Virus record (IMG/VR): IMGVR_UViG_3300036376_000009
Span: 25,895-89,894 of that record
Direction: 5' to 3' (one strand)
From: a virus
Lineage: Duplodnaviria; Caudoviricetes
Length of the DNA stretch: 64,000 bases
Shown: one piece after another, positions 15,046 through 64,000 of the stretch
Layout of the letters: each line of letters begins with the position of its first letter
Numbering within the stretch: the stretch's first letter is position 1
The notes under the pieces: generated by a model
What the model saw: the letters and a program-made list of their open reading frames with translations, nothing else
What the model was told of the DNA's origin: nothing
The model's database searches: none
Program-made: the position numbers and the translations under genes

Positions 15046-16635
15046 ATGGCGGTGAGGTTGGTGTTCGAGTCGGGTGGTACCGAGGTCGAACTCGGAGTTT
15101 TCCGCTTGCGTTTGGAGCATCCAGGTGGCAGGATGGGGGGTATGCCCAGCTCCCCCGCTCATCCGGGAGCAGGCTCGTTCGCCATCCCGAACCCGCAGAC
15201 GGCCAAGGAGCCGGTCCTCGGGCGCATCGATGCGCAGCCGAGTCCGCTCAGTACTTCCGTCGACGCCTGGCTCGCGGCCCTGGCGGCCCGCGGCAAGAAG
15301 CCCAACACGATCAAGGCGTACCGAACGTTCATCGGCTCGGCCATCCGCGAGAACGGGTGGCGGACCCCGGCGGACCTGACGTACGAGGCGGTCACCGCCT
15401 GGATGGCGGGCAAGCGCGAGGCCGGCGTGTGGCAGGGGTCCACCTACAACCGCAACCTCACCGCCCTGCGCTCGCTCACCAAGTTCCTTCGCAGGACCAA
15501 GCGGGCCCGCACCGATGAGCTCGAGGACGCCGAGCGGGCCGAGGACGACGGCGGGCCCGGCTCGCGGGCGGCGAGCACCGACGAGGCCCGCGGCATGATC
15601 CGCCTGGCTTGGGCCCGGGGGCTCTCCGACCGCCGGCGGTCGAACGAGGCGGCCCTCGAGCGGCTGTGCTGTTTCAAAGCCGCGCTGCGATCGAGCGAGC
15701 CGGGCGAGTGGCGGTGGAAGCACCTGCAGCTCGACGCGCCGGTGCCGCACATTGCGTGGACCAAGGACGTGCAGAAGAACCGCCGCGCCCAGGACGTCGC
15801 GCTCGACCCCGAGCTGGTGGAGCTGCTGCGGGCGCACCGCGACGCCCGGCGCGGGGCACCGCCCGTGATGGCGGGCGGGCGCCGCAACGGCAATCCCCAG
15901 CTGCGGCGCGTGGATTCGAACGACCCGGAGGCGTTCGTGTTCGCCAGGCGGGCCAGCCGCACGACGTGGCGCGAGGACCGGGCCCGGCTGCAAATCCCCG
16001 GCGAAGATCACCGCGGGCGGCCCTTCAGCCCGCACTCGGCGCGCAAGTGGTTCGAGACCACGCTGCAGCTCGCCGGCGTGCCCGATCGCCTGGTCGACTG
16101 GCTCATGCGCCACACCGGCGACGTCGGCACCCGGTACCTGGATCCGCCGCTGGACGAGCAGCGGCGCGTGCTCAGTCTGCTGCCCGCGCTCTGGCCCGAA
16201 CAGGCCGGCGGCGGGACCGGCGGGGCGGTTTCGACCCAGCGCCGAAGTTATCCACAACGTGAAGATTCTCTCAGTTCGGACTTGACACCAGCTGGCGGCG
16301 TGCCGAATCTGTCTGTCGCTCATCCGGGGCTTGCCCCCACAGACAACCCGGTTCCGGTCCCGTCGCTGCGCCACACCTCGGATGAGCCCCCACCCCTCGG
16401 TGGGACCGATCGGTGCGCGGCGGGACCGGCTCCGGGACTTTCCCAGGGGCCTGCGGCTCCGAGCTTCGGGAAGCACGTCAGGGACGAGACCACGCGTATC
16501 CGGTCGGAAATGCCGAAACCCGGACTCGGACTTTGGAATTCTAACCCGCGAGTAGCAGCAGCGTTGGCCGGCTTCCTTGACGCGTGGGCGAGGCTCCTGA
16601 AAGCAGGAGCCGAAAGTGAACGCCAAGCGTCTTGA
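15046..16635 (+). CDS. int: Tyrosine integrase A; ORF reads through the att core
   Basis: SAM-like N-domain; catalytic R (AALRSSE), K (VQKN), HSAR, H (LMRH), Y (TRYL). Start codon uncertain. Confidence 0.9.
   Translation: MAVRLVFESGGTEVELGVFRLRLEHPGGRMGGMPSSPAHPGAGSFAIPNPQTAKEPVLGRIDAQPSPLSTSVDAWLAALAARGKKPNTIKAYRTFIGSAIRENGWRTPADLTYEAVTAWMAGKREAGVWQGSTYNRNLTALRSLTKFLRRTKRARTDELEDAERAEDDGGPGSRAASTDEARGMIRLAWARGLSDRRRSNEAALERLCCFKAALRSSEPGEWRWKHLQLDAPVPHIAWTKDVQKNRRAQDVALDPELVELLRAHRDARRGAPPVMAGGRRNGNPQLRRVDSNDPEAFVFARRASRTTWREDRARLQIPGEDHRGRPFSPHSARKWFETTLQLAGVPDRLVDWLMRHTGDVGTRYLDPPLDEQRRVLSLLPALWPEQAGGGTGGAVSTQRRSYPQREDSLSSDLTPAGGVPNLSVAHPGLAPTDNPVPVPSLRHTSDEPPPLGGTDRCAAGPAPGLSQGPAAPSFGKHVRDETTRIRSEMPKPGLGLWNSNPRVAAALAGFLDAWARLLKAGAESERQAS
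16248..16256 (+). promoter_or_regulatory. Perfect DnaA box TTATCCACA
   Basis: Exact consensus, ending 26 bp before TTGACA at 16282; function not shown. Confidence 0.4.
16282..16310 (+). promoter_or_regulatory. Putative promoter inside integrase A 3' extension
   Basis: TTGACA-N17-GAATCT; same 229-bp distance to the att element as the copy at 63731. Confidence 0.55.
16318..16474 (+). ncRNA. Candidate novel pseudoknotted RNA (copy A)
   Basis: P1 16318-29/16376-87, P2 16354-72/16412-29, P3 16389-404, P4 16432-47, P5 16456-74; same topology as 63767-63924; G-U pairs favour the + strand. Confidence 0.6.
16511..16528 (-). other. att junction between prophages A and B (tRNA-3'-end-like fragment)
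   Basis: Reverse complement CGAGTCCGGGTTTCGGCA resembles a T-loop/acceptor 3' end; 20/26 identity with 63955-63980 and shared CGGACTCG. Confidence 0.65.
16592..16611 (+). promoter_or_regulatory. Hairpin occluding the RBS of the first early gene of prophage B
   Basis: GGCTCCTG-AAAG-CAGGAGCC; AGGAG (16605-09) lies in the stem; GTG at 16616. Confidence 0.55.
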
Positions 16636-16954
16636 TCCTGGCAAGACCGGCCGATCCCCCAACCCCCGAAACGGCCCGCCCCCCGGCTCACACCGGCGGG
16701 GAGACGTTCGGCTCGCCGATGCCATCGCCGCCGCCGAGCTGCCGCGATGCGAGTTCTGCGACGGGGAAATGGAGCACGACCCCTACCAGCCGTCCGACCC
16801 CGAGGTCGGGGTTCGGGAGGCCCCGGCCGCGTGGACGTGCTGCCTGTGCGGCCACACCGTCACCGAGCCAACACTGTCCGAACTGAAGGACGCGGCCGAC
16901 GACGCCGCGGTTGACGCGCACCGCATGGGGGTGATCGGGGGTGGCGCGTGCTGA
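16616..16954 (+). CDS. Small zinc-finger protein (first early gene of prophage B)
   Basis: CEFC...CCLC; overlaps the integrase A stop and the next start. Confidence 0.6.
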   Translation: MNAKRLDPGKTGRSPNPRNGPPPGSHRRGDVRLADAIAAAELPRCEFCDGEMEHDPYQPSDPEVGVREAPAAWTCCLCGHTVTEPTLSELKDAADDAAVDAHRMGVIGGGAC

Positions 16955-22056: not shown

Positions 22057-22479
22057 TTGTCCATGAGATCCGCGCGTGGTTCGCAGGGGGCTCGGGGGAA
22101 TTCGTTGCTCGGGAGGTTGGCGCTCGTTATGGCCGCGGCCGTGGGGCCGGGCCTCATTCTGAGCGCGGGCGCGGTGGCCGCGTTCTCGAGCGCAGTGCCG
22201 GCCCGGGCCGTTGTGCCAGAGCCGGCGGAGGTTGACCCGCTCGGGCTGTACCCGGGGTGCCGGTTCGCGGTTGTGTTCTGGGACGGCTCGTACTTCCTCT
22301 GCGCGGACGCCGACGAGGCCGCGGACGTGTTCGCCCGGTTCCCGTACCTCGCCGACTCGGTTCGCCGCATGGGCGACCTGGACCAGGACCCCGACTTCTG
22401 CGGCTGGTTCGGGTACCAGTTCAGCCGCTCGCGCCCGCGCCTGACGCTGCACATCGTGGCGGCGGGGGCGGAGGGTTGA
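22057..22479 (+). CDS. Hypothetical membrane-anchored protein
   Basis: AGGAG RBS at ~22052; hydrophobic N-terminal segment. Start may be ATG at 22063. Confidence 0.5.
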   Translation: MSMRSARGSQGARGNSLLGRLALVMAAAVGPGLILSAGAVAAFSSAVPARAVVPEPAEVDPLGLYPGCRFAVVFWDGSYFLCADADEAADVFARFPYLADSVRRMGDLDQDPDFCGWFGYQFSRSRPRLTLHIVAAGAEG

Positions 22480-62425: not shown

Positions 62426-64000
62426 ATGGATTCGTTCGCGTTTCCAGGCATAAACAAGGCCGGTTCGCGGTCGCCGCTCCCCGAGCGGCGATTCAAACTC
62501 ACGATTCATGATGACGTGACCGGCGAGATAATCCTTCTCGCACGCTTGCCAGACCTACCAACATCGGCGATACTGAATCTCATGCATACCCCACCTGCAC
62601 ATGCGGGAGGGGCCATGGCTGCCCGTACCCTGGACGGAGCCGCGAACGAGTCCGTGCCCCTTGGGCGGATCGAGGCTCAAAAATCCGAAGTTGCCGCCGC
62701 GTTCGAAGCGTGGAGCGTTCGCGTCAAGACCCGCCTCAAGCCCGCTTCGTACTACAGCTACGTCAAGATCGTGGAGTCGGCGCTGCGCGACAACCCCGGC
62801 TGGACGCGGCTGGACGACCTCACCTTCGACGCCATCACCGCGTACATCGACGGCAAGCTCAACGCCGGGGACTGGGCCCGGCTCACGTACAACAAGAACC
62901 TCCGCGTCCTGCGCGACTTCACGCGGTTCGTGACCAAGGCGAGGCGCCGAGCCGGCCAGGCCGACGCCGCGGACCCGCTCGAAGACGCCGAGCCCCAGCC
63001 GGGCAAGGACTCCAGCGCCGGCGGCCGGGCCGCGACGACGGAGGAAGCACGTGCGCTGCTCCGCTACACGTGCGCACGCGAGGAGGCCGACTCCCGCGCC
63101 ACCGGCAGCCGCTCGATCATCCGGGCGTGCATGTTCCTCGCGGGCATGCGCCCGGGCGAGCCCGAGCGGCTCCGGTGGAAGCACGTCAACCTGGACCACT
63201 CCACCCCGTTTTTCACGTGGACTCCCGAGGTCAACAAGAACGGCCGCAAGGAATTCGTGCCGATCGCCCCGGAGCTGACCGAGTTGCTGCGGGCGCACCG
63301 CGACCGGCTGCGCGAGCGGGTCAAGTCCGACGGCGGTGTCGAGGTGTCCCGGGACCGGCGGAACAAGACCAGCTCGCTGCGCCGCTACGACCCCGACGAC
63401 CCGGAGGCGTTCGTGGTCCCCAAGACCACGTCGGGGTGTCAGTGGGCCAAGGACGTGCGCAAGGCCCGGATCAAGGAGGCGGACTGGCGGGGGCTCCCGT
63501 TCACGCCGAAGGCGGCGCGACGCTGGCACGAGACCACGCTGGTTAAGGCCGGCGTGCCTCAGAACATGGTCGACGCGCTCATGAGACACGCGGTGACCGT
63601 GCCGCGCCGGTACTTCGACCCCACGTTGGAAGAACTCGCAGAAAAATTATCGGTGCTTCCTAAACTCTGGCCGGGAATGGACTTACGCACGATCGACGAA
63701 GGACACGCGCCCAGAAATCTTGAATCCCGCTTGACAGATGAATCGGAAAAGTCGATAGTCAATGAATCCTGGTCGCGTAGTGAAGCGGACTTCACGGACC
63801 CCTCCGCGTCAAAGTCGACCAGGACTGAGCCGCGTGCCTCACGGCGCGTGGAACAGACGACAGCGTACGAGGGGTCCATGAACGCGGGGCCTCGCCCCGC
63901 GTCAAGCGAGCCGGTTGGGCCGCTGCCGCTGGTTGAATCCGTCATGTCGAATCTGGGAATGCCGAGGGGCGGACTCGAACCGCCGACCTCCGGGTTATGA
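62426..64000 (+). CDS. int: Tyrosine integrase B; ORF ends inside the tRNA (antisense)
   Basis: AGMRPGE, VNKNG, KAAR (H replaced by K), LMRH, RRYF. TGA at 63998-64000 is the complement of the anticodon loop. Alternative start 62615. Confidence 0.9.
   Translation: MDSFAFPGINKAGSRSPLPERRFKLTIHDDVTGEIILLARLPDLPTSAILNLMHTPPAHAGGAMAARTLDGAANESVPLGRIEAQKSEVAAAFEAWSVRVKTRLKPASYYSYVKIVESALRDNPGWTRLDDLTFDAITAYIDGKLNAGDWARLTYNKNLRVLRDFTRFVTKARRRAGQADAADPLEDAEPQPGKDSSAGGRAATTEEARALLRYTCAREEADSRATGSRSIIRACMFLAGMRPGEPERLRWKHVNLDHSTPFFTWTPEVNKNGRKEFVPIAPELTELLRAHRDRLRERVKSDGGVEVSRDRRNKTSSLRRYDPDDPEAFVVPKTTSGCQWAKDVRKARIKEADWRGLPFTPKAARRWHETTLVKAGVPQNMVDALMRHAVTVPRRYFDPTLEELAEKLSVLPKLWPGMDLRTIDEGHAPRNLESRLTDESEKSIVNESWSRSEADFTDPSASKSTRTEPRASRRVEQTTAYEGSMNAGPRPASSEPVGPLPLVESVMSNLGMPRGGLEPPTSGL
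63731..63759 (+). promoter_or_regulatory. Putative promoter inside integrase B 3' extension
   Basis: TTGACA-N17-GATAGT; 229 bp before the tRNA discriminator position (63960). Confidence 0.6.
63767..63924 (+). ncRNA. Candidate novel pseudoknotted RNA (copy B)
   Basis: P1 63767-75/63816-24, hairpin 63780-95, P2 63796-804/63869-77 (extendable), P3 ~63829-45, P4 63882-902, P5 63905-24. Confidence 0.6.
63960..64000 (-). tRNA. 3' half of a tRNA with CAT anticodon (Met/Ile2/fMet unresolved), truncated by window; integration site
   Basis: Reverse complement TCATAACCCGGAGGTC-GGCGG-TTCGAGT-CCGCC-CCTCGGC-A: anticodon loop, T-arm, acceptor strand; no encoded CCA. Confidence 0.9.

Follow-up and report, generated by a model that had tools for sequence, protein, structure and literature searches.

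Why does one phage integrase gene end inside a tRNA gene, when a related integrase gene in the same DNA crosses a matching stretch and reads on to a different C-terminus? The question is raised by the window analysed here, the whole 64,000-nucleotide stretch that corresponds to bases 25895-89894 of the 89,894-bp IMG/VR provirus record IMGVR_UViG_3300036376_000009 (Caudoviricetes), so that the record ends at window base 64000; its G+C content is ~0.70. The window carries two tyrosine integrase (Int) genes, IntA and IntB. The explanation we consider very probable is that two tandem prophages belong to a family with the attachment site (att) inside int, that integration swaps a C-terminal helix of the integrase, and that IntA now carries the helix of the neighbouring prophage, B.

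Two integrase genes at one tRNA-Met gene

The window was confirmed to contain two siphovirus-like prophages, A and B, placed head-to-tail at a single tRNA-Met(CAT) gene. Prophage A extends from the start of the record to window position 16516 and has IntA at its end; prophage B runs from 16517 to about 63965, with IntB at its end, followed by the tRNA. Left of the middle junction, in A, are ParB, TerL (4e-167), the portal, the major head protein, the tape measure and a J-like fibre, and right of it, in B, are RecE- and RecT-like proteins, a DnaB-like helicase and a second terminase (TerL). Free-phage relatives have the gene order tail genes, int, early genes, and the layout is therefore read as A ending in IntA, then B from its early genes through to IntB, then the tRNA. 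The features on which the argument turns are the following.

15142..16635, + strand: IntA, tyrosine integrase of prophage A (497 amino acids as called, P0009; the frame is open back to 14827)
62615..64000, + strand: IntB, integrated form of the prophage B tyrosine integrase (461 amino acids, P0002), ending in the tRNA
63960..64000, - strand: the 3' 41 nucleotides (nt) of tRNA-Met(CAT), discriminator to anticodon loop, the gene being incomplete because window and record end here
16509..16516, no strand: AATGCCGA, probable crossover core of the hybrid junction (P arm of A and P' arm of B), identical to the block at 63958-63965
63958..63965, no strand: AATGCCGA, the core at attR of prophage B (identity block)
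16521..16528, no strand: CGGACTCG, a second identity block, 4 nt beyond AATGCCGA, taken as the core in the initial annotation of this DNA

The right junction reads ...GGGAATGCCGAGGGGCGGACTCGAACCGCC... through to GGGTTATGA at the window end, and the middle junction reads ...GGAAATGCCGAAACCCGGACTCGGACTTTGG.... Read as reverse complement, positions 63960-64000 give the final 41 nt of the tRNA-Met(CAT) gene. Two Phycisphaerae metagenome-assembled genomes (MAGs) contain this gene whole, as a 75-nt tRNA-Met with identical last 41 nt and with TTT after it, and the site is unoccupied there (ARAGORN, MAG G006). ARAGORN called no tRNA in the window itself, because the tRNA-Met gene is cut by the window end.

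ATGCCGAAACCCGGACTC at 16510-16527 and ATGCCGAGGGGCGGACTC at 63959-63976 each carry an ATG in frame with a long tyrosine integrase open reading frame (ORF), and the two blocks common to both junctions, AATGCCGA and CGGACTCG, lie within both int ORFs. Both integrases cross the mimic of the tRNA 3' end in one frame, ATG CCG A... IntB reads ATG CCG AGG GGC GGA CTC and ends in MPRGGLEPPTSGL, followed by a TGA at 63998-64000 in the anticodon loop, so that, in agreement with the initial annotation, its stop lies 13 codons from the ATG, within the tRNA-Met sequence, and 11 residues follow MP. IntA continues past the core as ...MPKPGLGLWNSNPRV...LLKAGAESERQAS, with 39 codons after MP and its stop at 16633-16635. 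Because the core is read in one frame by IntA and IntB alike, IntA would carry the helix of B, and IntB is truncated.

Exchange within int in relatives and position of the core

An exchange at att inside int has been shown in a relative that uses a tRNA-Cys gene. Its integrase (P0014, 604 amino acids) is found on a small contig with phage genes next to it (L029), the unbroken attP form, and the same integrase is truncated in a Phycisphaeraceae MAG (L019, attR). The helix-coding tail is located in that MAG ~37 kb upstream on the same strand, directly after tRNA-Cys (L021, reverse complement, attL). The attP, attL and attR of this phage share CGACCTTT, 8 bp made up of five acceptor-stem bases, the discriminator and two flanking T. 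To the right of CGACCTTT, attP and attL are identical at 200/200 positions and to the left at 62/200; attP and attR are identical at 200/200 positions to the left and at 50/200 to the right. The integrase reads ...ETTF-SGFKMRED...LADLLDALSRLLR... at attP and ...ETTF-RARG-stop at attR, ending 4 residues past the core. The initial annotation had claimed that att lies within the int ORF and that the C-terminal tail is exchanged in frame, and both claims are borne out by this relative as well as by the two junctions of the window. The check it had proposed was to search the left ends of related single prophages for this tail; the tail was found at this attL, 37 kb upstream of the truncated int.

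A second comparison comes from G005, a 51-kb provirus that was the only match among IMG/VR proviruses at the same tRNA-Met. Its left junction, GTGAATGCCGAG-TATCGACC..., and its right junction, GAAATGCCGAG-GGGCGGAC..., have only AATGCCGAG, a 9-bp block, in common; therefore the exchange did not take place in the T loop. G005 is also a tandem, with a second tyrosine integrase of another subfamily (P0154; L016:9-1535, L016:1470-1610). P0154 crosses the AATGCCGAG core in a different frame (NAEYRPH...) and therefore misses the helix of its neighbour, which is encoded in the ATG frame.

Because identity at the junctions of these relatives is confined to 8-9 bp at the 3' extremity of the tRNA, the exchange in the window probably took place in AATGCCGA (16509-16516) rather than in CGGACTCG (16521-16528). 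In the AATGCCGA block at 16509-16516, tRNA-Met positions 68-73 appear as their complement together with 2 flanking nt, an arrangement that matches the 8-bp CGACCTTT core of the tRNA-Cys relative and the 9-bp block of G005. The 4 nt between AATGCCGA and CGGACTCG are AACC at the middle junction as against GGGG in the tRNA, and the middle-junction segment is therefore not a displaced host tRNA end. Similar degenerate mimics of the T arm are seen in the attP of free-phage relatives on the same side of the core, and the tRNA-Cys phage has one at the corresponding side, in its P arm. By analogy, CGGACTCG is more likely a T-arm mimic in the P' arm of B, perhaps a core-type site bound by the integrase, for which a likeness to the T arm of attB is required. 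The crossover proposed by the initial annotation was thus rightly placed within int and in frame, but its core was probably not CGGACTCG. The tail of the free-phage IntB is accordingly predicted to start MP-KPGL and probably not MPRGGL-GL, a shift of two residues that leaves the frame and the helix unaffected.

The tail that IntA acquires past this core is the following.

16517..16635, + strand: tail of 39 codons plus stop, assigned to the left end of B (P'B) and at present fused to IntA

The tail profile matches this stretch and no other in the whole 89.9-kb record, and the tail is positioned exactly where the early genes of B begin, with RecE/RecT following. We infer that the tail came from B. 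Its origin is not readable from the sequence, and the P arm of A followed by a tail resembles a normal attP of the family, so one could propose that the junction at 16509-16528 is no hybrid, the tail being A's own as part of an intact attP and the tail of B being lost or elsewhere. An intact attP of A between two integrated prophages, however, has no simple origin, and the single tail match sits at the start of the early genes of B just as it does in every free-phage relative. Moreover, the truncated IntB needs a partner tail, and a hybrid is what either order of site-specific integration at the same tRNA predicts; we regard a tail native to A as very improbable. An assembly chimera as the source of the middle junction was also considered and rejected, as the common blocks are merely 8 bp each, too short to mislead an assembler.

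With the tail assigned to B, the events at this locus could be described as follows. In the family, the attP core mimics the 3' extremity of the tRNA and lies ~100 codons past the catalytic domain and ~40 codons before the stop, and the free phage encodes the catalytic core, a disordered linker, the core peptide and a conserved C-terminal helix. Integration would sever int at the core; its helix-coding piece would end up at attL, the opposite end of the prophage, and a few antisense tRNA codons would complete the integrated int, adding in IntB the residues after MP. Excision would restore the long integrase. The middle junction would join the P arm of A to the P' arm of B, making IntA a long hybrid with the helix of B and leaving IntB short; were B to excise, the tRNA would cut IntA short, in frame.

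The integrase family, its C-terminal helix and its linker

IntA and IntB are 43% identical over ~365 residues, and their similarity breaks off at a common LPxLWP just past the catalytic Tyr. The Pfam family PF00589 (Phage_integrase) matches IntB with 32.2 bits (cut-off 27.1) and IntA with 26.4 bits, just under the cut-off; IntA also has a SAM-like N-domain in Pfam. The catalytic residues expected of a tyrosine recombinase, Arg-Lys-(His)-Arg-His/Trp-Tyr, are present as R183, K212, R301, H324 and Y332 (numbered as in P0009), each of them invariant or conserved to at least 90% among 62 sequences.

16135..16137, + strand: codon of the catalytic Tyr of IntA (Y332 of P0009), in the motif GTRYLD, a near-invariant column of the 62-sequence alignment

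The AlphaFold2 (AF2) model of IntA, built from 62 sequences, has a two-domain core at residues 30-355 with a predicted local distance difference test (pLDDT) score >90, and in the model these appear as the core-binding and catalytic domains that define the fold of tyrosine recombinases. In a fold search with residues 31-352, Brujita Int was the best match (Z 17.6), followed by the integron IntI (Z 16.5, root-mean-square deviation (rmsd) 3.3) and lambda Int 75-356 (Z 16.4, rmsd 3.0); Tn1549 Int and Cre are also matched, and the Z scores of these matches range over 14-17.6. The fold alignments end at residue 352, and the helix is outside them. The His of the HxxR motif is present in IntA and most tyrosine recombinases; it is Lys in IntB (63518-63532, ...TPKAARRW...) and Arg in P0003, and this catalytic position is variable in the integrase family.

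A word-based search had returned seven relatives only, and an exhaustive profile search returned 241 clusters at E<=1e-30. At E<=0.01, the tail profile matches at least 62 of the 149 best representatives, at a median distance of 9 residues from the C-terminal end and with 66-151 residues separating the match from LPxLWP, and many other representatives have a similar helix by eye. About 18 representatives (~18) end instead in tRNA-antisense peptides, five of them with the IntB ending EMPRGGLEPP(TSGL); other tRNA-derived endings are NAEGRTRTADL..VMN (the same tRNA-Met in another frame), WAQQDSNL, GRRGFEPRTPR and several ...GRT. The long forms lie amid phage genes with no tRNA nearby (L002, L003, L006, L007, L029, L031, L032). 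The short forms adjoin tRNA genes and then host genes (L005, L011, L014): L005 lies at tRNA-Val, within which its integrase ends, followed by CinA and ThiG, and L014 lies at tRNA-Met. All named hosts are Phycisphaerae MAGs. A literature search found no paper on this integrase family or on Phycisphaerae prophage integrases, and a family of two-domain tyrosine recombinases in Phycisphaerae phages with the attP core inside the int frame is apparently undescribed. In one locus (L015:11154-11232) ARAGORN finds a complete tRNA-Ala(GGC) in sense orientation inside a family int ORF, with the conserved helix encoded just after it; this attP may carry a whole tRNA gene within int.

The helix and the stretch that leads to it in IntA are located as follows.

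16198..16508, + strand: linker of ~104 codons from LPxLWP, the end of the catalytic domain, to the att core; unconserved and predicted to be disordered
16282..16287, + strand: TTGACA, a promoter-like -35 hexamer directed to att, the sole conserved spot of the linker
16546..16629, + strand: predicted C-terminal helix, residues 469-496 of P0009 (AF2 pLDDT ~90)
16564-16602, + strand: conserved helix core LAGFLDAWARLLK, the family motif

In the alignment, the helix matches a LADLLEALARLLR-like motif, roughly LADLLEALARLLRxGA, at the C-terminus of long relatives. Thirteen (13) helix codons compared across 7 loci are identical at 0.67/0.78/0.37 for codon positions 1/2/3, which indicates that the helix is under selection as a peptide. 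The tail had been predicted to form an amphipathic helix, and it is moderately so: its hydrophobic moment (muH) of 0.57 was reached by 74/2000 shuffles. Small residues (-AG, -SA, -PA or -AA) close many tails of the family, which may or may not serve as degradation tags.

The linker has a pLDDT <50 over residues 356-463, and the third-position G+C content (GC3) is about 0.53-0.77 over linker and tail, compared with 0.9-1.0 in the integrase core. Within that range, GC3 is 0.6-0.73 in the linker of IntA and 0.55-0.75 along the open stretches past LPxLWP. Past LPxLWP, 145 codons are open in IntA and 109 in IntB, and the integrase frame is the only + frame open there. The GC3 drop, the unconserved linker sequence and the long antisense ORFs common in the DNA of the window could suggest an accidental open frame in G+C-rich DNA, such that the att region is a non-coding attP and the tail has no role as protein. 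From composition, however, the probability of an open frame is ~0.03 per stretch, that is per copy, and the other + frames hold 3-7 stops. The helix is also conserved at the protein level, with drift in third positions and a pLDDT of ~90, and there is no stop codon, so a ribosome must read through regardless. We consider an accidental extension extremely improbable, and treat the extension as part of the integrase.

The conserved hexamer has the form TTGAC[AT] and lies 214-234 nt upstream of the core in 10/11 family loci, with a GAnnnT- or CAnnAT-like hexamer ~17 nt past it (window 16282-16310 and 63731-63760); TTGAC[AT] is also seen in L002, L005, L006, L007, L011, L014, L031 and L032. In the proteins it encodes 'LT', with Leu as TTG despite a genome GC3 >0.9. 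A sigma-70 consensus scan did not call the element. To us it looks like a promoter within int, aimed across att at the early genes, which integration would disconnect.

Such an element brings up another reading of the tail, namely that the helix is a separate ~40-amino-acid protein that starts at the core ATG (MPxxGL...) on a TTGACA-driven transcript, its fusion to Int being incidental. The promoter-like hexamer lies ~225 nt upstream and points toward the ATG, GC3 is low in the linker, and the ATG is in frame in 21/52 tail-bearing members. In the same 52 members, however, the tRNA mimic is read in other frames in at least 11 (20 are ambiguous); these have no in-frame ATG, and the helix is still in the Int frame. 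As the helix is kept in the Int frame whichever frame reads the mimic, a free-standing small gene is unlikely as a general rule. In addition, more than 60 diverged clusters (>60) keep a stop-free linker of 66-151 codons, and neither copy has a clear Shine-Dalgarno sequence before the ATG. Although the separate-protein and Int-fusion routes are not mutually exclusive, we judge an incidental fusion decidedly unlikely.

Several points weigh against a helix of B fused to IntA by integration. The left end and the tail of A are outside the record, which begins within an ORF; no second tail and no tRNA-like repeat occur anywhere in the 89.9-kb record to mark that left end, and by synteny with B the record may lack ~3 kb of A there. 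Exact-pattern scans of viral contigs and metagenome contigs with the left arm of B, and a degenerate pattern spanning both possible attP joints of B, turned up neither A nor B as an excised circle, a free phage or a single lysogen; therefore, the crossover and the origin of the tail were not observed for A and B. The low GC3 of linker and tail, set against the integrase core, indicates that their DNA is under constraints beyond ordinary coding, for example TTGACA and the start of the next gene. The chimeric IntA of the initial annotation thus stands as a consequence of the tandem layout, not as something directly demonstrated.

16616..16954, + strand: first early ORF of prophage B (112 amino acids, GTG start; AGGAG at 16605-16609, 6 nt upstream)

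This ORF has no PHROG match and overlaps the last codons of the integrase tail, and the next gene overlaps the end of int also in L002, L003, L006, L007 and L029, all the free-phage relatives examined. Judging from this overlap, translation of the first early ORF could be coupled to ribosomes finishing Int. It is conceivable, if somewhat doubtful, that one crossover both removes the Int helix and cuts the promoter-like linker element off the early genes, the integration state setting both. If true, this would be an integration-dependent life-cycle switch built on int, setting integrase activity or stability together with early transcription, and the inner member of a tandem array would retain a hybrid integrase of full length as well as a promoter that is still connected.

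Elsewhere in the prophages, one of the small genes common to A (record bases 2359-2727, before the window) and B (window 22093-22461) encodes products with 76% amino-acid identity. As A and B have little similarity except for int and two small genes, a gene common to these otherwise unrelated genomes suggests a mobile or exchanged module.

Comparison with known systems and significance

The tyrosine integrase of Myxococcus phage Mx8, named as a precedent by the initial annotation, is the right one: attP lies in the 3' part of int, and integration makes a new 3' end (PMC6070905; PMC4383910). The prophage form (IntX) is reported to be active but altered compared with the phage form (IntP), not destroyed (PMC6070905). 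A comparable mechanism has been reported for Mx9 Int, and the GLEP motif of Mx8 Int lies ~110 residues before the stop. Mx8 integrates at a tRNA-Asp gene, with 13 residues taking the place of 112. As in Mx8, the core of the family described here lies in the int coding sequence, and integration swaps the C-terminus for a short host-encoded peptide while the catalytic domain stays intact. Apart from the recombinase fold in general, no relation to Mx8 Int is detectable in sequence: a tblastn search of 50,697 phage records gave no match at 1e-5 and hhalign of the family profile with Mx8 Int gave a probability of 0.3, for which reasons Mx8 Int was rejected as a family member. The swapped piece of the family is also short (39 amino acids), one conserved helix after a ~100-residue disordered linker; the design is common to a large Phycisphaerae-phage family, and the core is just ~8 bp at the 3' extremity of the tRNA.

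By analogy with Mx8, the helix presumably matters for activity, and our working model is that the long and short forms differ, the prophage form being active but altered. The helix might act via contacts in the recombinase tetramer (with a neighbouring protomer), via a partner protein, or via protein stability.

In the SSV1-type ('suicidal') integrases of archaeal viruses and plasmids, attP also lies inside int with a tRNA target (PMC7253208; PMC4383910), and integration splits int in two, disrupting the gene (PMC7253208). In contrast, the core in IntA and IntB is ~125 codons past the catalytic Tyr, so that integration spares the catalytic domain and exchanges no more than the C-terminal tail. 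In fold, IntA matches the SSV1 catalytic domain only distantly (Z 11.4). In the integration-dependent immunity of the mycobacteriophages BPs and Brujita, attP lies in a coding sequence that loses a C-terminal piece, a degradation tag, on integration, with a change in how the protein behaves, and their Int also has a C-terminal proteolysis signal (PMC4557955). The loss of a C-terminal piece is a likeness to the present family, as is Brujita Int being the best fold match of the IntA core; the difference is that the gene cut there is the repressor and here it is int. Ordinary tRNA-targeting integrases likewise insert at the tRNA 3' end and leave the tRNA gene intact, but their attP is intergenic and their tandems give hybrid att sites, not hybrid integrases. 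Tandem arrays at one tRNA gene are common (125/3919 islands in Islander), and the Islander authors allow for integrases that extend across attP (PMC4383910).

The principle of att inside int is thus known, from Mx8 and Mx9 and in a destructive version from the SSV1 type; a separate large family with a conserved helix is apparently new. It extends the Mx8 principle, in which the integration reaction rewrites the integrase, to an entire family of Planctomycetota-phage integrases. Here the element gained and lost in each integration cycle is defined and conserved, a single helix attached by a long flexible linker. For annotation, this means that prophage ends fall within genes in this family, that the integrase annotated in a lysogen differs from the enzyme of the virion genome, and that tandem arrays yield hybrid integrases. 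The helix swap offers a handle on how a tyrosine integrase senses a free versus an integrated genome.

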